Shown: positions 1 through 37,923 of the stretch, one piece after another | Position numbering within the stretch: position 1 is the stretch's first letter | How the letters are laid out: every line of letters starts with the position of its first letter | Notes under the pieces: generated by a model | Told to the model about the DNA's origin: nothing | Database searches by the model: none | Seen by the model: the letters and a program-made list of their open reading frames with translations, nothing else | From: a virus | DNA: 64,000 bases | Reading direction: 5' to 3' (one strand) | Virus genome (UHGV): UHGV-0149956 | Translations under genes and position numbers: made by a program

Positions 1-377
1 CAAAGGTTTACCCAACGTTAAAATTACCTGATTTACGCGGTGAGTTTATCCGTGGCTGGGATGATGGGCGAGGGATTGACTCTGGTCGCTCTATTTTAAG
101 CGAGCAAGGATATGCAACGGAGGATCATGCTCACGGATTACCGTCAAAATCAACCGTAGCAACTGACCGCTCAATTAATTTCTACTTTGACGAGGCATGG
201 GCTACTAGTGGTAATACGGGAGTTATCAGATGGGGGAACACAAGCGATGCAGGATTGCCAGCCCCTAATTATGGAACTTTTAAAACATATAAACAGTCCG
301 TAGCTAATTTAGGTACTGCTGGCTTAGAAACCCGCCCTCGTAATATTGCATTTAATTATATTGTGAGGGCGGATTAA
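1..377 (+). CDS. Tail-fibre C-terminal cassette, 5' truncated by window edge, opposite orientation to the main array
   Basis: Frame 3 translates to KVYPTLKLPDLRGEFIRGWDDGRGIDSGR...ETRPRNIAFNYIVRAD, stop TAA 375-377; shares the conserved N-proximal and C-terminal blocks of the minus-strand cassettes. Confidence 0.7.
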   Translation, partial: KVYPTLKLPDLRGEFIRGWDDGRGIDSGRSILSEQGYATEDHAHGLPSKSTVATDRSINFYFDEAWATSGNTGVIRWGNTSDAGLPAPNYGTFKTYKQSVANLGTAGLETRPRNIAFNYIVRAD

Positions 378-382
378 TTATA

Positions 383-994
383 TCAACTGGCTGTAGAAAG
401 TTGTTTTTCAGGCCAGTTGAGATCTGGTGCCGTGGTTAAATCCATCGCGTTCAGCTCGTCTATATAATCTAGCACGGAGTTAAGCTGCGTGGTTTCTGCC
501 TGCGTCAACTTCCGTCCAGCCCGTAATTTCAACTGAATCAGACTAATGGAATCCATCGCAGTATCAATCAATGACTGACGTTTTGTTTCTGCTGCCTCTA
601 CAGCTGCACTATGTTGAGCCTCAGTATCAACCACCCATTTCTCTCCATCCCATTTGTCGTATGGTGTTAGCGGGGCGATAGTGGTTGTATTTTCCGGATA
701 GTCACCCAACACCGTGATTTCTTCGGGATTCCCAGTGTCAATGCTATAGACAGTTTCGCCACGATGATCTGGCACATACTCCCATGAACTTAAATCCTCT
801 GAACGGAGAATCGCATAACCTGCTTTATGTGAGCCTGGAGCATCCAAACAAGAATTTGCCGGAATACCAACGCCAACAGCAAGATATTCAGTTGATGCAG
901 AAATATATTCCCGATTACCACCATCATAGTTATAAACGATAATGTTTCCTGCCTGTATGGCTATAAGTTCGCTATTTAATATCGCATTATCCAT
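383..994 (-). CDS. U: Tail fibre assembly chaperone (Tfa / U-like)
   Basis: 203-aa ORF immediately after the last fibre cassette; start overlaps the cassette stop by 1 nt (TAATG); composition typical of Tfa family. Confidence 0.65.
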   Translation of the reverse strand: MDNAILNSELIAIQAGNIIVYNYDGGNREYISASTEYLAVGVGIPANSCLDAPGSHKAGYAILRSEDLSSWEYVPDHRGETVYSIDTGNPEEITVLGDYPENTTTIAPLTPYDKWDGEKWVVDTEAQHSAAVEAAETKRQSLIDTAMDSISLIQLKLRAGRKLTQAETTQLNSVLDYIDELNAMDLTTAPDLNWPEKQLSTAS

Positions 995-1452
995 TATGCT
1001 GCTCTCACAATATAATTGAAGGCAATGTTACGTGGGCGGGTTTCATTCCCCCCAGATAACTCCGTTCTGTATTGACTGGTAAATTTACCATTAATCGCTC
1101 CTTGCCGGACGGCGTTATCTGTCGACAACAGACTATCCCCCCCTCTGTCATTTGGCACCAATACCGTGTTATCCCACGCGTCCCATGACCGAATATTATG
1201 ATAATGACTTCCTGTTAACCACCCCTGTATGCTTAAGATGACCCTTCCCGCATCCACACCTCGCCCATCATCCCAACCACGGATAAACTCACCGCGTAAA
1301 TCCGGTAATTTATTGGTGGGGTAGGCCTTTGCCAGTTTGGGATACATTTCAGAAGAAAATGCTGCACCATTGCATTTTAGCCAGCCCGTTGGTGGTGTTT
1401 CTAAGGGCCACGGAACGGGCACACCAACAGGCAGTGCAGAGCCTTCCCCCAA
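994..1452 (-). CDS. Tail-fibre C-terminal cassette 5 (receptor-binding tip module)
   Basis: Conserved ~70-aa block GEGSALPVGVPVPWP...LRGEFIRGWDDGRG, variable middle, conserved end RPRNIAFNYIVRAA; begins at TTG inside a crossover-like site. Confidence 0.6.
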   Translation of the reverse strand: MGEGSALPVGVPVPWPLETPPTGWLKCNGAAFSSEMYPKLAKAYPTNKLPDLRGEFIRGWDDGRGVDAGRVILSIQGWLTGSHYHNIRSWDAWDNTVLVPNDRGGDSLLSTDNAVRQGAINGKFTSQYRTELSGGNETRPRNIAFNYIVRAA

Positions 1453-1469
1453 ACCAACGTTTTTATGTG
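1444..1469 (-). other. Crossover-like site 5
   Basis: TTCCCCCAAACC-AA-CGTTTTTATGTG. Confidence 0.5.
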
Positions 1470-1966
1470 GCCCTTACAATGTAATTAAAAGCAACGTTGC
1501 GGGGGCGCATTGATATCCATGCCCCGGTAAAATTATCCTCTGCCGTCCTTTGAGTGCCTGTTATGGAGTTATCTGATGATGCTGGAACATAATCGCTATT
1601 ATCTCCTGCTTTAGGATTAGCAGGGTTTCCAACAGTTATAACAGAATCAGCAGTAGCATAAGCGATACCTACTTTGACATTAGTAGTCAGATCGACACCG
1701 TAATAATCCTGCAAAGCTGTACGAATAAATGTTGCAGTCTGACCACTTAGCAATGAACGCCCTGTATCAATCCCTCTCGAATCATCCCAACCACGGATAA
1801 ACTCACCGCGTAAATCAGGTAATTTTAACGTTGGGTAAACCTTTGCCAGATTTGGGTACTTTTCAGAAGAAAATGCTGCTCCGTTACATTTCAGCCACCC
1901 CGTTGGTGGTGTGGCGGAGGGCCATGGAACAGGTACACCAACGGGCAGCGCCGAGCCTTCCCCTAA
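1463..1966 (-). CDS. Tail-fibre C-terminal cassette 4 (in-frame module without start codon)
   Basis: Frame is open from the crossover-like site to stop at 1463; the codon corresponding to the TTG of other cassettes is TTA here, so the ORF track only shows 1463-1753. Confidence 0.55.
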   Translation of the reverse strand, partial: LGEGSALPVGVPVPWPSATPPTGWLKCNGAAFSSEKYPNLAKVYPTLKLPDLRGEFIRGWDDSRGIDTGRSLLSGQTATFIRTALQDYYGVDLTTNVKVGIAYATADSVITVGNPANPKAGDNSDYVPASSDNSITGTQRTAEDNFTGAWISMRPRNVAFNYIVRAT

Positions 1967-1983
1967 ACCAACGTTTTTATGCC
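1958..1983 (-). other. Crossover-like site 4
   Basis: TTCCCCTAAACC-AA-CGTTTTTATGCC. Confidence 0.5.
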
Positions 1984-2438
1984 GCCCTTACGATATAATT
2001 AAAGGCAATATTACGAGGACGGTTTTCATTAGCTGTTGGCACGACACGAGAGGCGTCGAATCCAAGGTCATCGGTTTTGCCTATATCAGTTGTGTTATTC
2101 GGCATTCTCGCAGATCGTGTTCCTGCATCATAAAAAGCCCCTCTGATTGCATCAAAAGACATGCCAATCCCGCCATCTGCGAACCCCTCAATATTTCTTA
2201 TTGCATCCCCCTGTGAAGATAATAATTGTCGCCCGGCATCCACACCACGTCCGTCATCCCAGCCACGAATAAATTCACCGCGTAAATCCGGCAATTTATT
2301 AGTAGGGTAAGCCTTTGCCAGATTTGGGTACTTTTCAGAAGAAAATGCTGCTCCGTTACATTTCAGCCACCCCGTTGGCGGAGTGGCTGAGGGCCACGGA
2401 ACAGGTACGCCAACAGGCAATGCTGAGCCTTCCCCCAA
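1977..2438 (-). CDS. Tail-fibre C-terminal cassette 3
   Basis: Same conserved N block and C-terminal RPRNIAFNYIVRAA with distinct variable core. Confidence 0.6.
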   Translation of the reverse strand: MGEGSALPVGVPVPWPSATPPTGWLKCNGAAFSSEKYPNLAKAYPTNKLPDLRGEFIRGWDDGRGVDAGRQLLSSQGDAIRNIEGFADGGIGMSFDAIRGAFYDAGTRSARMPNNTTDIGKTDDLGFDASRVVPTANENRPRNIAFNYIVRAA

Positions 2439-2455
2439 ACCAACGTTTTCATGCC
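2430..2455 (-). other. Crossover-like site 3
   Basis: TTCCCCCAAACC-AA-CGTTTTCATGCC. Confidence 0.5.
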
Positions 2456-2877
2456 GCCCTTACGATATAATTAAACGCAATGTTACGAGGACGAATGGTT
2501 ACATAATTAACCCCATCACCTCGTGAAGGCCCTGCAAATGAAAAACGGGAAAATCCTGGTTGGTTAGAAACAATTTGGTCATAGTTATTGATTGAATGAC
2601 CAGACCCAATGTCGAAATTACCTCCGTAATGAGAAAAACTTGTACCATCCTGCCCTGAAAGCAGGGTACGTCCCGCATCAATCCCGCGCCCATCATCCCA
2701 GCCACGGATAAATTCACCGCGTAAATCCGGTAATTTATTGGTGGGGTAGGCTTTTGCCAGTTTGGGATACATTTCAGAAGAAAATGCTGCACCATTGCAT
2801 TTTAGCCAGCCCGTTGGTGGTGTTTCTAAGGGCCACGGAACGGGCACACCAACAGGCAGTGCAGAGCCTTCCCCCAA
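2449..2877 (-). CDS. Tail-fibre C-terminal cassette 2
   Basis: Same conserved blocks, distinct variable core. Confidence 0.6.
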   Translation of the reverse strand: MGEGSALPVGVPVPWPLETPPTGWLKCNGAAFSSEMYPKLAKAYPTNKLPDLRGEFIRGWDDGRGIDAGRTLLSGQDGTSFSHYGGNFDIGSGHSINNYDQIVSNQPGFSRFSFAGPSRGDGVNYVTIRPRNIAFNYIVRAA

Positions 2878-2894
2878 ACCAACGTTTTTATGCC
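2869..2894 (-). other. Crossover-like site 2
   Basis: TTCCCCCAAACC-AA-CGTTTTTATGCC. Confidence 0.5.
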
Positions 2895-3355
2895 GCCCTT
2901 ACGATGTAATTAAATGCAATATTACGGGGGCGGGTTTCAGATGCTGTACGAACTGAGCGAGAGGCGTCGAATGTCCAGTTATAAGAGCCATAACCCTCAA
3001 TAATTTCCGTTTCCTTTAGGCCTGTAGATAATACTTGACCATGTTGACTAAATGGCCCTGAACTAAGTACATCTCTAAAAAGCTGAGTACGCCCGAAAGA
3101 ACCAACAATATTCTGAATTGCATCATTCTGTGCAGATAATAAATTACGGCCAGAGTCAATCCCCCGCCCGTCATCCCAGCCGCGAATAAATTCGCCCCGT
3201 AGATCCGGCAATTTATTAGTAGGGTAAACCTTTGCCAGATTTGGGTACTTTTCAGAAGAAAATGCTGCACCATTGCATTTCAGCCACCCCGTTGGCGGTG
3301 TGGCTGAGGGCCATGGAACAGGTACACCAACGGGCAGTGCCGAGCCTTCCCCCAA
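2888..3355 (-). CDS. Tail-fibre C-terminal cassette 1
   Basis: Same conserved blocks, distinct variable core; lies 10 nt after the stop of the main fibre gene. Confidence 0.6.
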   Translation of the reverse strand: MGEGSALPVGVPVPWPSATPPTGWLKCNGAAFSSEKYPNLAKVYPTNKLPDLRGEFIRGWDDGRGIDSGRNLLSAQNDAIQNIVGSFGRTQLFRDVLSSGPFSQHGQVLSTGLKETEIIEGYGSYNWTFDASRSVRTASETRPRNIAFNYIVRAA

Positions 3356-3372
3356 ACCAACGTTTTTATGCC
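3347..3372 (-). other. Crossover-like site 1
   Basis: TTCCCCCAAACC-AA-CGTTTTTATGCC, direct repeat of site 0 left half and core; spans stop of S and start of cassette 1. Confidence 0.5.
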
Positions 3373-5390
3373 GCCCTTACGATGTAATTAAATGCAACGT
3401 TGCGAGGGCGAGTTTCTGTACCTACATTTCCACTAATTTCACCATAACGTTTAACACTACGAGAGCTAATAGCTCGTAGTGAGGAAGGCACCTTATGACC
3501 GGGTTCGTCCGTTTTAACTATTCCCCCGTCACCGTATGTAGCTAGTATTCCTGGATTTACGCCTTCCCGTGCACTTCCTGCGGCGAGTCCGTCCCCTGTC
3601 CATAATTCCATATAGTGTGCATGGTCCAAAATTGTGTGTGGCTGCCAATTAAGCAAAGCGCGGCCAGCATCCACCCCGCGCCCATCATCCCAGCCACGGA
3701 TAAATTCACCGCGTAAATCAGGTAATTTTAACGTTGGGTAAACCTTTGCCAGATTTGGGTACTTTTCAGAAGAAAATGCTGCACCATTGCATTTCAGCCA
3801 CCCCGTTGGCGGTGTGGCTGAGGGCCATGGAATAGGTACACCAACGGGCAGCGCCGAGCCTTCCCCTAAACCAAGGTAATCAAGAACGCTCTGAATACTG
3901 GTCTTACCAAGAATGGCGCGTCCAACACTTGTCAATGCAGTTAACGCGGCACGATCAACACCTGTGAAATAAGGGAGTTTATCTGCTGCTGTAGCTAGTG
4001 CCGCTAGAGCAGTGAGCGTAGCGTCTGCCGCTTGCTTTCCATTAGCCAAATCATATGCAGCCTTGACAGCTTTCGGTGTGGCGGCCAGCACTTCAGACGT
4101 GCTGTTAGTGGCACTACTGAGCTGAGTGATGCCTTTCGCTGTCAATGAAGCTGTTGGCACACCAGTGATCTGATTCCAGGGATGTGTATGACTGGATGGT
4201 GCCTTTCCGGCTGCTAGATCGTATGCAGCTTTAACCGCTTTTGGAGTTGCAGCTAATGTTTCAGAAGTGCTGTTGGTGTCGCTACTGAGCTGAACTATCC
4301 CTTTTTGTGTCGTGGTTGCATCCTGGGCTGTATACTTCCCGTTAGCCAAATCATATGCAGCCTTGACAGCTTTCGGTGTGGCGGCCAGCACTTCGGACGT
4401 ACTGTTAGTGGCACTACTGAGCTGAGTGATGCCTTTCGCTGTCAATGAAGCTGTTGGCACACCAGTGATCTGATTCCAGGGATGTGTATGACTGGATGGT
4501 GCCTTTCCGGCTGCTAGATCGTATGCAGCTTTAACCGCTTTTGGAGTTGCAGCTAATGTTTCAGAAGTGCTGTTGGTGTCGCTACTGAGCTGAACTATCC
4601 CTTTTTGTGTCGTGGTTGCATCCTGGGCTGTATACTTCCCGTTAGCCAAATCATATGCAGCCTTGACAGCTTTCGGTGTGGCGGCCAGCACTTCGGACGT
4701 ACTGTTAGTGGCACTACTGAGCTGAACTAATCCCTTTTGCGTTGTGCTTGCATCCTGCGCCGTATATTTGCTTTTCGCCAGATCGTAGGCTTTTTTAACT
4801 GCCAGCGAACTCGCAGCAACATCACTTCTGGTACTGGTTACAGAGTCTGAAATATCAATGCCGATCGTGCGGTTGATACGCTCGGATGTATCAATCATCT
4901 CTTGAGTAATGGTAGATACGCCAGCAGGGATATTCACCGTACAAACCAGCAGTTCCCCATCACCTAACTGATATGAATCGGTATAGGTTCTGGCAACAAA
5001 TTCAGCTGCATGAATATGTGACGCGGTATTCACCTGATAGGTATCTTCTCCAAGAAGGTATCTTCCCTTCAGCACAATTGCATATTTCTTGCCTGCGTTA
5101 AGTGCAAGAGAGATATCCTTACGATGCTGAATAGTTACCTGGTAGAATTCACCAATATCCACTGACGCCGCGCCAGCGGTTTTATCTCCATCCACTGAGG
5201 TGATTAACAGGTTCATTCCACCGCCAGGCTTAGGCAAGAAACCAGCATAAAATCCCGGGTCAACAATTCCCCTGAATTTTCGGTTTAGAGCGGCTGACAG
5301 ATATGGTTCGTGGTATTGCACATCAGCCACCAGAGCCAACGACTCGGGTGATGGGTAAGTAACCGATGTAACAACTGTAACGTCATTCAT
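3366..5390 (-). CDS. S: Tail fibre protein (S-like) with ~30-aa repeats and expressed C-terminal tip
   Basis: ATG at 5390 with AAGGA 5-8 nt upstream; internal repeats TAQDA-TTQKG-VQLSS-TNSTSE-LAATPKAVKAAYDLA; C-terminal 150 aa homologous to the downstream cassettes. Confidence 0.8.
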   Translation of the reverse strand: MNDVTVVTSVTYPSPESLALVADVQYHEPYLSAALNRKFRGIVDPGFYAGFLPKPGGGMNLLITSVDGDKTAGAASVDIGEFYQVTIQHRKDISLALNAGKKYAIVLKGRYLLGEDTYQVNTASHIHAAEFVARTYTDSYQLGDGELLVCTVNIPAGVSTITQEMIDTSERINRTIGIDISDSVTSTRSDVAASSLAVKKAYDLAKSKYTAQDASTTQKGLVQLSSATNSTSEVLAATPKAVKAAYDLANGKYTAQDATTTQKGIVQLSSDTNSTSETLAATPKAVKAAYDLAAGKAPSSHTHPWNQITGVPTASLTAKGITQLSSATNSTSEVLAATPKAVKAAYDLANGKYTAQDATTTQKGIVQLSSDTNSTSETLAATPKAVKAAYDLAAGKAPSSHTHPWNQITGVPTASLTAKGITQLSSATNSTSEVLAATPKAVKAAYDLANGKQAADATLTALAALATAADKLPYFTGVDRAALTALTSVGRAILGKTSIQSVLDYLGLGEGSALPVGVPIPWPSATPPTGWLKCNGAAFSSEKYPNLAKVYPTLKLPDLRGEFIRGWDDGRGVDAGRALLNWQPHTILDHAHYMELWTGDGLAAGSAREGVNPGILATYGDGGIVKTDEPGHKVPSSLRAISSRSVKRYGEISGNVGTETRPRNVAFNYIVRAA
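3861..3886 (-). other. Crossover-like site 0 (Din/invertase-family-like 26-mer) at constant/variable junction of S
   Basis: TTCCCCTAAACC-AA-GGTAATCAAGAA; resembles hix/gix/cix sites as recalled (12-bp half sites flanking a 2-bp AA core). Confidence 0.55.
4021..4725. repeat. Near-perfect 300-bp tandem repeat (2.3 copies) inside the fibre gene
   Basis: Sequence lines starting at 4321 and 4621 are identical, and lines 4141/4441, 4201/4501, 4261/4561 are identical; period exactly 300 bp. Confidence 0.9.
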
Positions 5391-29603: not shown

Positions 29604-29814
29604 TCGCTTACAGTCAATGTTTCTGTCGCGTATAGTCAACAATAAATCGCGTGCAGTCAACAATAAATCGTGCACAGTCAACATAAAATCGCGTATAGTC
29701 AATGTTGATCCCATTTCAGGCCAGTAATGACGCGGCTTACAGCGATCCGGGATCTTCTTTGGATCTTCCTAGGTTCTCTTTAGGATCTGTTTATTGGATC
29801 TATGCTGTGGATAA
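29604..29814. other. Plasmid origin region: iterons, GATC cluster and DnaA box (oriR/incC-like)
   Basis: Five iterons CGCGTATAGTCAA-like at 21-22 bp spacing (29604-29701), five GATC within 29744-29800, DnaA box TGTGGATAA at 29806-29814. Confidence 0.7.
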
Positions 29815-30889: not shown

Positions 30890-31735
30890 TTACTGTGCCG
30901 CTTTGTTTAATTCATCAAGAACAGAATCAGGAACCAAAGCGGCGACTGCGCTGGATGTGCTGGTCTTATTTGCTGATGCTTCCGCAAGCGCGGTACCGAT
31001 AGCATGGTTATAAGCAGTTATGGCTACGTTGGCGCTTTCCTTCGCTCGTTCATACTGCTGTTGTAACGCAGTTGTGGGCGCTGTTGTCTGGTTGAAAACA
31101 ACCCCAAACTGTTCAGTTGCTACTTTCAGAGATTCAATTTGCTCTTCTGTTAGTGCTGGTGGGGGAGTGGCAGTGCCGCCGCCTGAACCAGAGCCTGACG
31201 AGCTTCCTGAGCCAGTGTTAAGGGTCTGGTTAATCTCCCCCATAGCAGCGACTAAACTTGATGTATTAAGCGCGTTAACAGCGTCCTCAAGCGATTTAGT
31301 AATATTCACATCACCAATGGCAATAGAGATCGGCAGTTCTGAAACTTCTCGCTCATTAGCACGGCAGTAAACATCCCAACCAATATCGAGTTGAAGCAGC
31401 ATTGACAGATCTGCATAACCAGCCAACAGGTCCGCGTGCTTAGTTGCCAGTTCTCCAATGTTCGTTAAGCCGGTTGTGGTTGTTCTGATCGTTGAAACAT
31501 AGCTGGTAATAGTGTCGGGATAGACAATTGTATCCAGAATTAATCCGGTCAATTCTTCTGCAAGCAGTTTTGCTGTGTTAGCACTGTTTCGTGCCGATGT
31601 TATGGCACCAGGTGTTTTCATCCCACCGGCGGCGGCCAATTTTTTATATGCGGATAACTGGTAGTCTTTTTCCAGCATGATATCTCCTAACTTACCTGAA
31701 CCAGGCCGTCTCCGGACGCTACGGTAGATCCGCAT
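30890..31735 (-). CDS. Hypothetical protein with Gly/Ser linker
   Basis: 281-aa ORF with SGSGSSSGSGSGGG tract; start possibly internal. Confidence 0.35.
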   Translation of the reverse strand: MRIYRSVRRRPGSGKLGDIMLEKDYQLSAYKKLAAAGGMKTPGAITSARNSANTAKLLAEELTGLILDTIVYPDTITSYVSTIRTTTTGLTNIGELATKHADLLAGYADLSMLLQLDIGWDVYCRANEREVSELPISIAIGDVNITKSLEDAVNALNTSSLVAAMGEINQTLNTGSGSSSGSGSGGGTATPPPALTEEQIESLKVATEQFGVVFNQTTAPTTALQQQYERAKESANVAITAYNHAIGTALAEASANKTSTSSAVAALVPDSVLDELNKAAQ

Positions 31736-31971
31736 GAAACAGGGTCACCAACGCATACGATCCCTTTACCATTGACGGTAAACCATGCCCTGGTTGATAT
31801 AGCTTGCCCACCGTGCGTACTGTTTCCATCGGTATGCTGTGCATATTGCTTACCATCAACTAACACTTCTACTCCGTTGACTTTAAGTAGTGGTTCACTC
31901 TCTACAGGAGGCCTGGATGGGAATCCTCCGTGCCCCGAACAAATGCTGTCTTTTGTTGCAATACTTGCCAC
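31687..31971 (-). CDS. PAAR-like domain protein
   Basis: 94 aa, Gly/His/Cys-rich with PAAR-like spacing (SGHGG, HGG, VCVGDPVSCGSTV). Confidence 0.45.
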   Translation of the reverse strand: MASIATKDSICSGHGGFPSRPPVESEPLLKVNGVEVLVDGKQYAQHTDGNSTHGGQAISTRAWFTVNGKGIVCVGDPVSCGSTVASGDGLVQVS

Positions 31972-32052: not shown

Positions 32053-32069
32053 ATTGCTCTAATAAATAT
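32053..32069 (+). promoter_or_regulatory. C1-repressor-type operator 17-mer upstream of uhr-hrdC-dmt
   Basis: ATTGCTCTAATAAATAT. Confidence 0.65.
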
Positions 32070-32140
32070 TGTTTTTTATGTCGTATTTTCGGTACCATTC
32101 AGCCATCGCCCTTCAATGGGCATTTGTTTGGAGTCGTCAG

Positions 32141-32425
32141 ATGCAGATGGAGCTAATAAGCCGCAAAGAGTTCGATAGCCGTGTAACCAGCGGTGAACTC
32201 GACAACTTGCAGGCTATCAAGGTGAAAGAAGGCTTTTGCCTCATTGGGAATCAGAGCGGAACAAATCGCGTTTTTATGCTTCGCCGTACGGATTTGAAGC
32301 CATTTGTCTGGAAGAACGAAATTGGTCCCAGCTCATACGCTCAAACGAGGGGGTGCCACAACCTGGCCTTTTTCTACAAAGACGAGCTTTCTGTGGTTGA
32401 TATTCAAGGGTTACAACATGTTTAA
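32141..32425 (+). CDS. Small protein upstream of hrdC
   Basis: ORF whose stop overlaps the hrdC start; start chosen at MQMELISRK. Confidence 0.4.
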
Positions 32426-33323
32426 GCACTGGAAAAACATTACTATTTATAAACTTTCTCGTGAGGCGGATCTGACCGACTTAGAAGATAAAAAGAAAAT
32501 GATCCTTTTCACGCCATGCGGTAGTCAGGATATGGCCAAGTTCGGTTTTGTATCTCCATTTGGTGATAATTCCGAAGTTATCGCTATGCATGGAAATGGT
32601 TTTATCCTTGTTGAAGCAAAGCGCGAAACAAAAATTCTTCCCCCGCCGGTTATCCAGCGAGCTATTCAAGAAAAAATTGAAAAACTTGAGCAAGAACAAG
32701 CGCGTAAACTGAAGAAAACAGAGAAGGACTCCCTGAAAGACGAAGTTCTGCATTCTCTTCTGCCACGGGCTTTTTCAAAGTTTTCTGTTATCCAGGCGAT
32801 CTACGACGGTTCAACTAAACGTATCTATATCAATGCCAGCGCGCGGCAGGCAGAGGATATGCTCGCGCTTATGCGTAAGTCTCTGGGTTCTCTTCCTGTT
32901 GTTCCCCTGAGTGTTGAAAATCCCATTGAATTAACGCTGACCGACTGGGTACGTGATGGTAGTGCTCCACAGGGATTTCAAATGGGGGATGCGGCAGAAC
33001 TTAAGGCAGTGCTTGAGGATGGCGGTATTGCCCGGGTGAAAAAGCAGGATTTGGGAAGCGATGAAATTTCCACACACCTGGAAGCTGGCAAGCTCGTCAC
33101 TAAGTTGGCACTCGACTGGCAGAACCGCATTAAATTTACACTGGACCATAACTTCAGCCTTACCAGCGTCAAATTTGCGGATGAATTGCTTGAGCAGAAC
33201 TCTGATATTGATAGTGAAGATGTTGCGCAGCGACTGGACGCAGATTTCTTCCTGTTGACCAGTGAAATTTCGTGCCTGGTTGATGCTCTGGTAAATGCCC
33301 TTGGTGGAGAGGCTAAGCAGTGA
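32418..33323 (+). CDS. hrdC: Recombination-associated protein RdgC homolog
   Basis: [52 protein letters not shown] closely follow E. coli RdgC as recalled; SD AAGGG. Confidence 0.85.
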
Positions 33324-35584
33324 AAGAGCTGTGCTATGGATCTGTTTGCAGTGGAATTGAAGCCGCGAGTATTGCCTGGGAACCGTTGGGTATGCGTCCG
33401 GTGTGGTTTGCTGAAATCGAGTCTTTTCCATCTGCCGTTCTTGCGCACCGCTGGCCCCATGTCGCCAACCTTGGCGACATGACAAAACTTGCCAAAAAAG
33501 TCCTGGCTGGGGAAATCGAATCCCCTGATGTGCTCGTCGGGGGAACACCTTGTCAGGCATTCAGTATCGCGGGATTACGTGGTGGGCTTGATGATGAGCG
33601 TGGCGCGCTAACTTTAAAGTATGTGGAGCTTGCAAATGCAATTGACGACAAACGGGCTGAGTCATTTCTCAAACCAGCCGTTATCGTCTGGGAAAATGTC
33701 CCAGGAGTCTTGTCTTCGGCAGATAACGCCTTCGGATGTTTCCTTGCCGGATTGGCTGGAGAAGATGTGCCATTTGAACCAGGTGATCGACCTGAATCAG
33801 GAAAAAGCAACGCGTTCTGGCGGTGGGATGGCAAAACCGGTTGCCATGTTCCAAAGTGGCCGCAGTGTGGTTGTATTTATGGACCGCAGCGAAAGGTGGC
33901 CTGGAGAATCCTTGATGCCCAATACTTCGGAGTGGCACAACGACGCCGACGCGTGTTTGTTGTCGCAAGTGCTCGAACAGACCTCGATCCCGCAACGGTA
34001 CTTTTTGAGTTCGAAGGCGTGCGCCGGAATATTGCGCCGAGCCGAAAAAAGAAGGAAATCGCTTCCGCCATTACTGCAAATGGCGCTGCAATCAGTGGCG
34101 AAAGCCTAAATCCATGCCTACACGCTGGCATGTCCCCCGGTATGAAATCGACGAAAGCCGTAAACGGTTTCAGGATGGCGGCATTTGGGGAATATATTGA
34201 CGATGAAACCGCATCGACAGTAAAGGCAAGAGACTTTAAAGATGCCACTGACCTTGCCGTTTTTAGCAGCACTGGAGCAGGTTTTTGGTCAGAAGGGCAT
34301 GGTACATTGCGGGCGCGTGAGCAAGAAAGCCATGAGCATCTTGTTACATTGGCTTTTCCTGAGCGTATGAGTGGTACACAACATGCAGCAACTAAGAATA
34401 CTTCACCATCTCTAATGGCTCAAAATCCAACTGCTGTTTGCTATGAAGTAAGAAACGAAGAAGTAGCTGTCCGCCGTCTTACCCCTGTCGAATGTGAGAG
34501 ACTTCAAGGTTTTCCTGATGGGCATACGTTGATCCCTACGGAAAAGCGTAAAAAAGTTAATTCAGATGAACTGGCATATCTGCACAATCACTATCCAGAT
34601 TTAAGCGAAGAAGAGGCCGCGATGCTTGCAGCTGACGGACCGCGTTACAAAGCGATCGGCAATAGTATGGCAATACCAGTAATGCGCTGGATTGGCGATC
34701 GGATTACTAAGGCCGTATGTCGGCAGAAAGAAGGAAGTGAAACAAAAGAGCGAAAAGTTAAACCAGCGGCAGAATTCGAACGGTCCATATTCAAATGGGC
34801 TGGTGGAAAATTTGGTGTTCTGGAACAAATCTTTCGCTATTTGCCAGAAGGGAAGCGCCTGATCGAACCTTTTGTCGGTGGCGGAGCTGTCTTCACGAAT
34901 GCCGGATACCAGGAAAATCTGCTAAATGATGTGAATGCTGACCTGATTAACTTTTACAAGACTCTGCAACGCGAGGCGCATTCACTTATCACACTGGCGC
35001 ATCGGTTTTTCCAGGACTACAACACACAGGAAGGATACCTGGCAGTACGGAATGCGTTTAACAAACAAGTCTATGATGATTTACATCGCGCAGCGGCGTT
35101 TTTGTTCCTGAACCGACATTGTTTTAACGGATTGACGCGTTACAACCAGGCCGGTGAGTTCAATGTCGGTTATGGGAAGTATAAAACTCCGTATTTCCCA
35201 TTACAGGAGATGGAAGCCTTCCTCGGTGCGGAAGGGCGTTCTGAGTTTGTATGTGGTGATTTTGCTGCGGTAATTGAAGCTGCCGGAGAAGGAGATGTCA
35301 TTTTTTGCGATCCGCCATATGAACCGCTTCCAAATACAGAGGGATTCACGAACTATTCCGGTCATGACTTTAAGTTTGAAGAGCAAAAACGCCTGGTGTC
35401 TCTGTTGACGGATGCTCATCGTCGAGGTGCAAAGGTTCTCATTACTAACAGTGGCGCGCCAAACATCAGAGAGCTTTATCATGACAGTGGCTTCAGAGTG
35501 GAACCTCTTTTTGCCAGACGTTCTGTGTCTTGTAAGGGGGACACTCGAGGTGTAGCTCATGACGTTTTGGGTATATTGCTCTAA
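33320..35584 (+). CDS. dmt: Fused DNA methyltransferase: N-terminal C5-cytosine MTase plus C-terminal Dam-like N6-adenine MTase
   Basis: 754 aa; C5 motifs [11 protein letters not shown] and VWENVPG; Dam motifs FKWAGGK and CDPPYEP. Confidence 0.85.
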
Positions 35585-35591
35585 TAAATTT
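35575..35591 (+). promoter_or_regulatory. C1-repressor-type operator 17-mer
   Basis: ATTGCTCTAATAAATTT, perfect match to recalled consensus; overlaps dmt stop. Confidence 0.7.
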
Positions 35592-35765
35592 ATTAGTGTA
35601 ATATCGCCTCAATGAATCGTGATTTATAGAGCGATTTAGCTGTTAGCCGCGACAGGCGCGGCGGTAAGCATGGCTGGGCCTAGTCCTCCCAGACAAACCA
35701 CCGAGTTGCCAGGTTGACCATGCGCCTAAGTGGCAACGCCGAAGTGCGTTACGAGCTTCCAGTTT

Positions 35766-35790
35766 GCCCATCTTCGGGTGGGCTTTTTTA
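35766..35790 (+). terminator. Rho-independent terminator
   Basis: GCCCATCTTCGGGTGGGC hairpin followed by TTTTTTA. Confidence 0.6.
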
Positions 35791-36253
35791 GGGTTTTCGT
35801 CATGGTTAGCGACTTTGCGGCGGTTTAGAACCCGACCATTAAAGTAAATGCAAACGATGATCTGATGATGGTAGCGGCCTAAGAAGCCAGACGCCACGGG
35901 GTATGAGTCGTCCCCCGTCAAAAAATCGACCGCAGAGTGTCCCCGTCTGTGTATTAGGGAACGGGGAGGCACAACAGGTAAGGGCGCTGGTGTGATTAAC
36001 CAGATGAACGAGAAGGGGCCATCTGTTGGTCAGCGTCCTTTCCTGTTGCGTCTTCTTTTCAGCGTAACAGCGGTGCTTAACAGCACTTTGGGTACAGTTC
36101 CACGAATTTACGGGTATATCCCGTCATGCTGAAGGCGCTAATCACGCTGGAAGCCAGGGTTGTGCATCCCCTGTTACCGAATTGCAGCCAGGGCGCGGTG
36201 CGCCGAAAAGCATACGGAGGTGGAAGCCCTCGCCGGAGACGTACCCGGCAAGT

Positions 36254-36329
36254 GATGGTGTAGCTCAGCGGTTAGAGCGGTTGACTGTTAATCAACGGGT
36301 CGATGGTTCAAATCCATCCACCATCGCCA
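36254..36329 (+). tRNA. tRNA-Asn (anticodon GTT)
   Basis: Cloverleaf built by hand: acceptor GATGGTG/CACCATC, D-stem GCTC/GAGC, anticodon loop CTGTTAA, T-arm GATGG-TTCAAAT-CCATC, 3' GCCA. Confidence 0.85.
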
Positions 36330-36331
36330 AT

Positions 36332-36407
36332 GCCGGTTTAGCTCAGTTGGTAGAGCGCCTGCCTTGTAAGCAGGATGTCAGCGGTTCGAGTCCGTTAATC
36401 GGCACCA
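36332..36407 (+). tRNA. tRNA-Thr (anticodon TGT)
   Basis: Acceptor GCCGGTT/AATCGGC, anticodon stem CCTGC/GCAGG with loop CTTGTAA, T-loop TTCGAGT, 3' ACCA. Confidence 0.85.
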
Positions 36408-37847: not shown

Positions 37848-37923
37848 GGCCCTTTAGCTCAGTGGTTAGAGCTGGCGACTCATAATCGCACGGTCACCGG
37901 TTCAAGTCCGGTAGGGGCCACCA
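37848..37923 (+). tRNA. tRNA-Ile2-like (anticodon CAT; could be read as Met)
   Basis: Close to E. coli ileX as recalled: GGCCCTT acceptor, anticodon loop CTCATAA, T-arm ACCGG-TTCAAGT-CCGGT, 3' ACCA. Confidence 0.8.

Follow-up and report, generated by a model that had tools for sequence, protein, structure and literature searches.

A probable P1-type uhr-hrdC-dmt early operon encoding an RdgC homologue and a bifunctional DNA methyltransferase in a viral genome

The region spanning positions 32053-35584 of a 64-kb stretch of viral DNA (UHGV-0149956; hereafter the window, analysed over its whole length of 64,000 nucleotides) raises the question of what a virus gains from placing an RdgC-like protein in one repressor-controlled transcription unit with a protein that combines a cytosine and an adenine DNA methylase. 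According to our analysis, which relies on sequence comparison, the region very probably represents the early operon uhr-hrdC-dmt of a phage-plasmid of the P1 type (Punavirus), acting by the mechanism proposed below. It aligns with P1 (65092-68742) over 3651 nt, colinearly and without gaps, with 98.2% identity (65 nucleotide differences), and its surroundings exhibit the P1 synteny: upfC (a PAAR gene on the minus strand), the Odmt-Pdmt control region, the genes uhr, hrdC and dmt, and then Oban, three tRNAs and the DnaB-like gene ban. The gene order, the overlaps and the operator are the same as in the P1 operon (GenBank AF234172, 65145-68676), whose curated record already contains Odmt, Pdmt, uhr, hrdC and dmt as features. 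Compared with the P1 proteins, Uhr is 100% identical, HrdC differs by one amino acid, and Dmt is without a single amino-acid change in its Dam half, its 16 amino-acid differences being all confined to the C5 half. The operon upf64.0-hrdC-dam of P7 (AF503408) shares the operator, Uhr, HrdC, the C5 catalytic core and the Dam half; its Dam protein, however, has 672 amino acids, with a variable (recognition) region that is different in sequence, 82 amino acids shorter and endowed with a single APTLT unit, and a predicted late promoter is annotated inside the P7 dam gene. We found nothing that contradicts the identification as a P1 operon, and the operon is carried by 575 of the 5426 complete E. 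coli genomes, i.e. about one in ten. Dmt as a bifunctional protein, HrdC as a homologue of RdgC and Op68/Odmt as the site of C1 control are all entered in the curated P1 genome record, and the operon has long been known from P1 and its plasmid-prophage relatives; the identification is thus correct but ordinary, and adds nothing new to this knowledge.

The earlier note on this DNA had postulated repressor control, and the position at which it let the region begin, 32053, coincides exactly with the first base of a putative C1 operator. Odmt (formerly Op68; 32053-32069, plus strand), a monovalent operator with the sequence ATTGCTCTAATAAATAT, is identical in this element, in P1 (AF234172, 65145-65161) and in P7, agrees in 16 of 17 positions with the asymmetric 17-bp C1 consensus ATTGCTCTAATAAATTT, and adjoins the -35 box of the promoter. 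Nine C1 operator sites were observed in the window, vs 0.32 expected by chance. Pdmt, a sigma-70 promoter (32069-32098, plus strand) placed by colinearity with the P1 annotation, comprises the -35 element TTGTTT (32069-32074), which abuts or overlaps Odmt, an 18-nt spacer with one difference from P1, and the -10 element TACCAT (32093-32098). A scan with the sigma-70 consensus did not detect Pdmt, which is a weak promoter positioned solely by homology to P1. Neither the c1 gene nor the immC operator cluster was found within the 64-kb window, which places the regulator outside the examined sequence.

The three cistrons overlap, uhr and hrdC by 8 nt, and the hrdC stop codon and the GTG start of dmt within the tetranucleotide GTGA. 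These overlaps, which match the curated P1 annotation, support the co-transcription of uhr, hrdC and dmt, as previously claimed for the RdgC homologue and the methylase, and hrdC and dmt are induced together in P1vir infection (bioRxiv 10.64898/2025.12.28.696737). We propose that in the lysogen C1 would bind the single 17-bp Odmt abutting the -35 box of Pdmt and keep the operon off, while infection or induction would lead to expression of the three overlapping, translationally coupled cistrons. On the downstream side, the bivalent C1 operator Oban a/b (formerly Op72; 35575-35602), which belongs to the next operon (ban), overlaps the dmt stop codon. The first terminator-like hairpin with a T-run 3' of dmt is located at 35761-35790 on the plus strand, inside a region annotated in P1 as dicF-like; in the Rfam search no family reached its gathering score there and no match to the DicF family was obtained, the only Rfam matches being the three tRNAs.

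With respect to the content of the operon, hrdC and dmt had been recognized rightly in the earlier note, but the first cistron, uhr (32141-32425, plus strand), was overlooked. Its product of 94 amino acids is identical also to Upf64.0 of P7, and its homologues (27 clusters) are confined to P1-like elements. Uhr matches no family in Pfam or NCBIfam, and its AF2 model (pLDDT 70.9) revealed no fold match in a Foldseek search of the PDB at E<1e-3; the best matches, to the eL38-like and FtsH N-domain folds (3e-3 to 1e-2), were judged non-informative. Uhr is a small protein specific to the P1 lineage. The PHROG/RefSeq label "nucleoside triphosphate pyrophosphohydrolase" was rejected, as it is without support from Pfam or NCBIfam and misfits the beta-rich model.

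The second cistron, hrdC (32418-33323, plus strand), encodes 301 amino acids; homology with P1 indicates that translation begins with the ATG at 32418 and not with the TTG at 32304 of the mechanically derived open reading frame. The relationship to RdgC suspected from the sequence by the earlier reader is borne out: HrdC matches PF04381 with an E-value of 8.5e-98 (327.8 bits vs a cut-off of 25), passes the cut-off of the RdgC equivalog NF001462 (379 vs 330 bits) but remains below that of the enterobacterial RdgC equivalog NF001460 (420 vs 501 bits), and shares 62% identity with E. coli RdgC (2OWL in the PDB) across the full length (2.9e-113). HrdC differs from the host RdgC in being phage-borne and repressor-controlled. 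Most likely, it would form the same DNA-encircling dimer as RdgC and damp RecA-dependent transactions on the replicating phage DNA.

The third cistron, dmt (33320-35584, plus strand), encodes a bifunctional DNA methyltransferase of 754 amino acids, 98% identical to P1 Dmt. The m5C motifs (PCQ, residues 77-79; ENV, residues 125-127) and the Dam-like motifs (FKWAGGK and DPPY) reported in the earlier note are all present within the coordinates that it gave, and Pfam finds both a C5 methylase (PF00145, 5.5e-37) and a D12-class N6-adenine methylase (PF02086, 2.9e-56). The latter, Dam-family half comprises residues 487-754 (34778-35581, plus strand) and contains FKWAGGK (residues 491-497; 34790-34810), DPPY (664-667; 35309-35320) and FxGxG. 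It exceeds the cut-off of TIGR00571 (247.8 vs 114.85 bits) but falls below that of the host Dam equivalog NF008152 (242.8 vs 441 bits), so that this half appears to be a member of the Dam family rather than an orthologue of the host Dam. It aligns over its whole length with the E. coli Dam structures 2G1P and 4GBE (~8e-57), with the equivalents of the DNA-contacting residues K9, N120, L122, R124 and Y138 conserved and P134 replaced by G; unlike E. coli Dam, it is fused to a C5 methylase, phage-borne and repressor-controlled. The P1 Dam half is specific for GATC, and P1 dmt is needed for the GATC methylation of pac, being essential only in dam- hosts (PMC12707154); Dmt controls the cleavage of concatemers at pac (PMC7253447). 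The Dam half would therefore be expected to methylate the pac GATC cluster, whereupon pacase would cut and headful packaging would start; methylation of pac by Dmt would also render the phage independent of the host Dam. When the GATC cluster of pac was sought in the window, only that of oriR (29707-29797) was present, which places pac outside the window.

The C5 half (approximately residues 1-470; 33320-34729, plus strand) is defined by PF00145 (128 bits vs a cut-off of 22), TIGR00675 (121.8 vs 100.65) and its motifs, all six of which, read in the alignment, are intact and in the canonical order: I (the variant CSGIEA), IV (GGTPCQ, 33548-33556), VI (ENV, 33692-33700), VIII (QRRRR), IX, and X (GNS). 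The P1 record describes the target of Dmt as "perhaps at C5 cytosine". Residue 74, which lies beside the PCQ of motif IV, is the canonical G in this copy (VLVGGTPCQ), and W in this position is unique to the laboratory P1. We consider it most likely that the C5 half would methylate cytosine at C5 within one or more short target sequences, the choice of which would lie with a modular variable region, and would thereby mark the progeny DNA prior to packaging.

The variable target-recognition region (residues 243-384; 34046-34471, plus strand) differs between P1-like alleles. Here it contains three TL-like units (STVKA299, GTLRA328 and PSLMA363), and the TL-like motif is 5-fold enriched over shuffled sequences. 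Its blocks A, B and C, which cover residues 285-313, 314-343 and 344-384, respectively, are separated in distant homologues (A only in 21, B only in 10, C only in 10, and A with C in one), half-region matches are found in unrelated phages, and the combinations of blocks vary among P1-like alleles (P1 type, P7 type, 710-aa and 862-aa). Modelling of residues 1-480, i.e. the C5 half, with AF2 from 12 near-identical relatives yielded an unusable structure (pLDDT 30.9, pTM 0.20). The modularity of this region resembles that of the multispecific phage C5 methylases (PMC8936443, PMC12707154), such as M.SPRI, M.Phi3TI and M.H2I of Bacillus phages, in which tandem recognition domains accompany one catalytic core. 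Like them, Dmt is a phage orphan C5 methylase that would be silent in the lysogen, with apparently separable blocks around TL-like motifs that are added, lost and exchanged between alleles; the likeness is one of architecture, and Dmt, unlike these enzymes, is fused to a Dam domain.

Is the C5 half active at all? It could be argued that it has become a relic without catalytic activity, or that it serves the Dam enzyme as a DNA-binding or targeting appendage, and that GATC methylation alone matters. Such a scenario would agree with the lack, in the literature covered, of a report of m5C activity for P1 Dmt, with the "perhaps" of the annotation and with the database names, which describe Dmt simply as a Dam-family methylase; a literature search on P1 m5C methylomes also returned nothing relevant. 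The laboratory P1 is fully viable with W74 next to the catalytic PCQ, the amino-acid differences from P1 all sit in this half, and some alleles have an incomplete motif set: motif IX is absent from 9 of the 120 cluster representatives, and P0094 is without motifs IX-X. However, the pN/pS ratio of the C5 half vs P1 is 0.19 rather than about 1, which indicates purifying selection, the six conserved motifs are intact in this copy, G74 is kept in 119 of the 120 relatives, and 4411 representatives at E<1e-30, with conserved cores, make up a large subfamily. Moreover, an intein inserted precisely at the catalytic Cys is maintained in-frame in 152 genomes, and as such insertion sites are typical of functionally constrained residues, this argues for functional constraint on the C5 half. 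We therefore regard a dead C5 half as unlikely. Pseudogenization was considered and judged unlikely in view of the same pN/pS value and intact motifs.

Alternatively, the operon might serve primarily for anti-restriction, with broad m6A and m5C methylation shielding the phage DNA from host restriction and HrdC modulating recombination, as the earlier note had it. GATC methylation would block enzymes of the MboI/DpnII type, and P1-like alleles have swapped the recognition regions of their C5 halves, the blocks of which occur independently in other phage methylases, as would be expected if restriction systems exerted a diversifying pressure. Phages are known whose methylase combines several recognition domains in a single protein, by which they evade many restriction systems (PMC12707154). 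An enzyme made after derepression, however, can mark only the progeny DNA for the next host, and the proposed protection of the incoming genome has to be abandoned, as methylation after entry comes too late for it. DNA with added m5C or m6A can, furthermore, become susceptible to type IV enzymes. What has been documented for P1 dmt is a phenotype in packaging, i.e. in the cleavage of pac, and not in the evasion of restriction (PMC12707154, PMC7253447), the known anti-restriction system of P1 consists of the virion-borne Dar proteins (mentioned in PMC9024508), and P1 needs none of the genes uhr, hrdC and dmt to form plaques on ordinary hosts (PMC10695390). Hence, while the intact motifs, the selective constraint and the swapped modules leave an anti-restriction role plausible for the C5 half, the Dam half has its documented role in packaging, and anti-restriction as the primary purpose of the whole operon seems rather doubtful to us. 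Even less probable is that HrdC, and perhaps Uhr, act as counter-defence or replication factors instead of HrdC modulating recombination, e.g. by shielding replicating DNA or linear ends from nucleases or from DNA-sensing defence. HrdC is expressed early alongside replication functions, belongs to a DNA-binding family (PF04381, named "putative exonuclease RdgC" in Pfam) and, like Uhr, exhibits extreme conservation, with at most one amino-acid change among P1, P7 and this element. On the other hand, its full-length identity to the host RdgC argues for the same biochemical activity, and it was non-essential in a CRISPRi screen (PMC10695390).

Returning to the preferred reading, in which the Dam half promotes packaging and the C5 half marks the progeny DNA, it is tempting to speculate further, albeit with considerable reservation, that the C5 half is not only active but multispecific, with exchangeable modules that number three here, one in the P7-type and 710-aa alleles, and four recognizable units in the 822-862-aa alleles. 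Different P1-like phage-plasmids might then carry different m5C "passports", reshuffled by recombination, with a homing intein spreading among the alleles, and the laboratory P1 could, by virtue of W74, be C5-defective, which would explain why C5 activity has gone unseen. As P1-like plasmids reside in about 10% of E. coli strains, and many of them carry resistance genes, the activity of the C5 half and the sequences it marks could matter there; the swapped recognition modules might decide which restriction barriers the P1-like phage-plasmids cross.

Finally, the intein at the catalytic Cys deserves a brief description. It occurs in about one quarter of the relatives, and a literature search for an intein in P1-like dmt returned nothing relevant. 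In this copy of Dmt it is absent, the sequence GGTP being followed by CQAFS without interruption. In the phage RCS47 and in about 150 P1-like plasmids of E. coli, which possess the same operon and the same exteins, Dmt bears an intein; the RCS47-type intein comprises 341 amino acids, combines Hint and LAGLIDADG domains, and separates P77 from the catalytic C78.

The segment 32000-35650 aligns without gaps, at 98.2% identity, with positions 65092-68742 of the P1 record AF234172 (megablast against phage genomes), and RCS47, P7, SJ46 and other Punavirus records match it similarly. The curated P1 record carries exactly the operon features seen in the window, the remainder of which is also P1-like, with repA and oriR upstream and tRNAs, tciA and the DnaB-like gene ban downstream. 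As judged from these alignments, the feature is the uhr-hrdC-dmt operon of P1 and is already known, since the annotation of the P1 record and the published function describe a repressor-controlled fused methylase together with an RdgC homolog. The P1 dam gene was reportedly characterised by Coulby and Sternberg in 1988, and control of the P1 dam methylase through Op68 is said to have been reported by Citron et al. in 1989. The operon is present in 575 of 5426 complete E. coli genomes, in which 581 of its 593 locations are plasmids of about 90-100 kb.

A divergent intergenic region is followed by three overlapping ORFs on one strand: uhr (32141-32425, 94 aa), hrdC (32418-33323, 301 aa) and dmt (33320-35584, 754 aa, with a GTG start). 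The start of hrdC and the stop of uhr share 8 nt, and the dmt start joins the hrdC stop in GTGA, with GGAG about 10 nt upstream; the ORFs are thus laid out as in a translationally coupled operon. Position 32053, at which the earlier note began the feature, is the first base of Odmt (formerly Op68; 32053-32069, ATTGCTCTAATAAATAT), a monovalent C1 operator that is also a feature of the curated P1 record and has the same sequence in P1, P7 and the window. In that record the -35 box of the sigma-70 promoter Pdmt abuts Odmt. Nine sites matching the C1 consensus with at most three mismatches were found in the window, compared to 0.32 expected; the c1 gene itself was not found there. The final codons of dmt, with its stop codon, are overlapped by Oban a/b (35575-35602), which belongs to the ban operon and is a bivalent C1 operator likewise annotated in the curated P1 record; one C1-controlled operon therefore ends in what serves as the control region of the following one. 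Between the dmt stop and 35761 there is no terminator-like hairpin. The region annotated in P1 as "dicF-like" (35699-35800) has a strong hairpin with a T-run at its end (35761-35790), and a search of this region against Rfam returned no family, DicF included, at the gathering score.

HrdC is a full-length RdgC (PF04381, 8.5e-98; PDB 2OWL, 2.9e-113; 62% identity). Homologs of Uhr are confined to P1-like elements (27 clusters, the full-length ones at least 65% identical), and its AlphaFold2 model is a small alpha/beta fold of moderate pLDDT (70.9). PHROG 2213 and RefSeq phage records call Uhr a "nucleoside triphosphate pyrophosphohydrolase"; since no Pfam or NCBIfam family matched it and its model has no significant fold match in the PDB, this label is unsupported and looks like an annotation artefact.

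Dmt matches both PF00145 (C5, 5.5e-37) and PF02086 (D12/Dam, 2.9e-56) and exceeds the NCBIfam cut-offs of the dcm superfamily and the dam subfamily, its Dam half scoring under the host-Dam equivalog cut-off. The Dam half aligns end-to-end with crystal structures of E. coli Dam (about 8e-57) and in this alignment keeps the equivalents of K9, N120, L122, R124 and Y138. In the C5 half, motifs I (a CSGIEA variant), IV, VI, VIII, IX and X follow in canonical order. All the motifs quoted in the earlier note are present (PCQ 77-79, ENV 125-127, FKWAGGK 491-497, DPPY 664-667), and its description of a repressor-controlled operon with an RdgC homolog and a fused methylase agrees with the curated P1 features, the domain scores and the overlapping ORFs. 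The C5/Dam fusion reaches beyond the close P1 group, as indicated by the 782-aa protein P0155, which shares with Dmt its linker and the insertion that follows motif IX, at only 54% identity in the C5 half.

Architecture and control thus stand as first read, but the anti-restriction role proposed with them differs from the documented function, which is methylation of pac for packaging. In particular, methylation of the incoming genome is untenable, because Dmt made after derepression can mark progeny DNA only. GATC methylation at pac is required for packaging of P1, and dmt is essential in Dam- hosts only (PMC12707154; PMC7253447, the latter citing Sternberg and Coulby 1990). In a genome-wide CRISPRi study uhr, hrdC and dmt were all non-essential (PMC10695390), and P1vir infection co-induces hrdC and dmt (bioRxiv 10.64898/2025.12.28.696737). 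The pac site was not found within the window, where the number of GATC sites is near expectation (244 observed, 249 expected). Their sole dense cluster, six sites in 91 bp (29707-29797), lies in the plasmid origin oriR adjoining repA and provides Dam-type methylation with a local substrate.

The modular recognition region of the C5 half is the one aspect of the operon that might repay experiments. The P1-like Dmt proteins have many different lengths, and their alignment reveals a mosaic in the motif VIII-IX region (34046-34471 in the window). Alleles of the P1/window type have units with STVKA, GTLRA and PSLMA, those of P7 a single APTLT unit (82 aa shorter), a 710-aa allele the first unit alone, and alleles of 822-862 aa additional units; motif IX is missing from some alleles, and the Dam half exists in two, of the FKWAGGKFG and FKWVGGKFS types. 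With the window region divided into blocks A (residues 285-313), B (314-343) and C (344-384), the combinations among P1-like proteins are A, ABC, AB with others, or the P7-specific unit. A HMMER scan of 1.84 billion representatives with the C5 half gave 31,625 matches, 4411 of them below 1e-30, which by sequence places it in a very large subfamily. In distant members the blocks turn up independently of one another (A only in 21, B only in 10, C only in 10, A and C in one), and unrelated phage methylases of Aeromonas, Providencia, Pseudomonas, Serratia, Pectobacterium, Vibrio and Cronobacter each match just one end of the region, front or back. Among 126 representatives the region has a median length of 243 aa, and 52 of them contain at least two TL-like motifs, which are 5-fold more frequent than in shuffled sequence (160 vs 31.6 +/- 5.3). 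In its anatomy the Dmt variable region resembles that of the multispecific C5 methylases of Bacillus phages (PMC8936443), which makes Dmt a possible member of that group. Structure prediction of the C5 half was unusably poor (pLDDT 30.9).

Across the operon, the window and P1 differ at 65 nucleotides. Synonymous and non-synonymous differences number 2 and 0 in uhr, 2 and 1 in hrdC, 9 and 0 in the Dam half, and 26 and 16 in the C5 half. With a pN/pS of 0.19, the C5 half is clearly under purifying selection, although the constraint is weaker than on its neighbors. Synonymous divergence from P1 is about 8-fold lower in hrdC (0.010) than in the C5 half (0.077), and this unevenness suggests recombination inside the operon. 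Dmt residue 74 (33539-33541), immediately before the catalytic PCQ, accounts for one of the 16 non-synonymous differences in the C5 half and is Gly in the window and P7 and Trp in the laboratory P1 of AF234172 (VLVWGTPCQ). When related Dmt proteins were compared through 120 cluster representatives, 119 had Gly, so the laboratory strain may be atypical; it may carry a mutant C5 half, and this could account for the absence of m5C reports.

The dmt gene of RCS47 (FO818745; L004, 1752-2774) contains a 341-aa intein with Hint_2 and LAGLIDADG_3 domains, whose insertion point lies precisely between P77 and C78, the catalytic Cys of the PCQ motif; the intein begins with CFTAGHM, and its end and the following extein read AVVHN|CQAFS. 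It is found in dmt of 152 of the 5426 complete E. coli genomes, accompanied by variable regions of either the P1 or the P7 type (proteins P0001, P0101, P0094 and P0002, the copy in P0002 being degraded), and the only annotation that covers it is that of the whole protein, "Dam family methyltransferase". The window dmt is free of it.

Divergent from the operon lies upfC (31687-31971, minus strand), whose product has a weak match to the PAAR motif (26.4 bits, just below the cut-off of 27), in agreement with its placement at the tip of the tail spike as a T4 gp5.4-like protein (PMC9024508). The best P1-like records do not match positions 1-4701, whose P1 counterpart is the tail-fibre and invertible-segment area, and they leave uncovered about 22% of the 39-64 kb region (39001-64000); hundreds of Stx and lambdoid phage records match part of the latter region, which suggests an insertion sequence or other cargo. 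Downstream of the operon, tRNA genes at 36254-36326, 36332-36404 and 37848-37920 are the counterparts of P1 tRNA-Asn, tRNA-Thr and tRNA-Ile.
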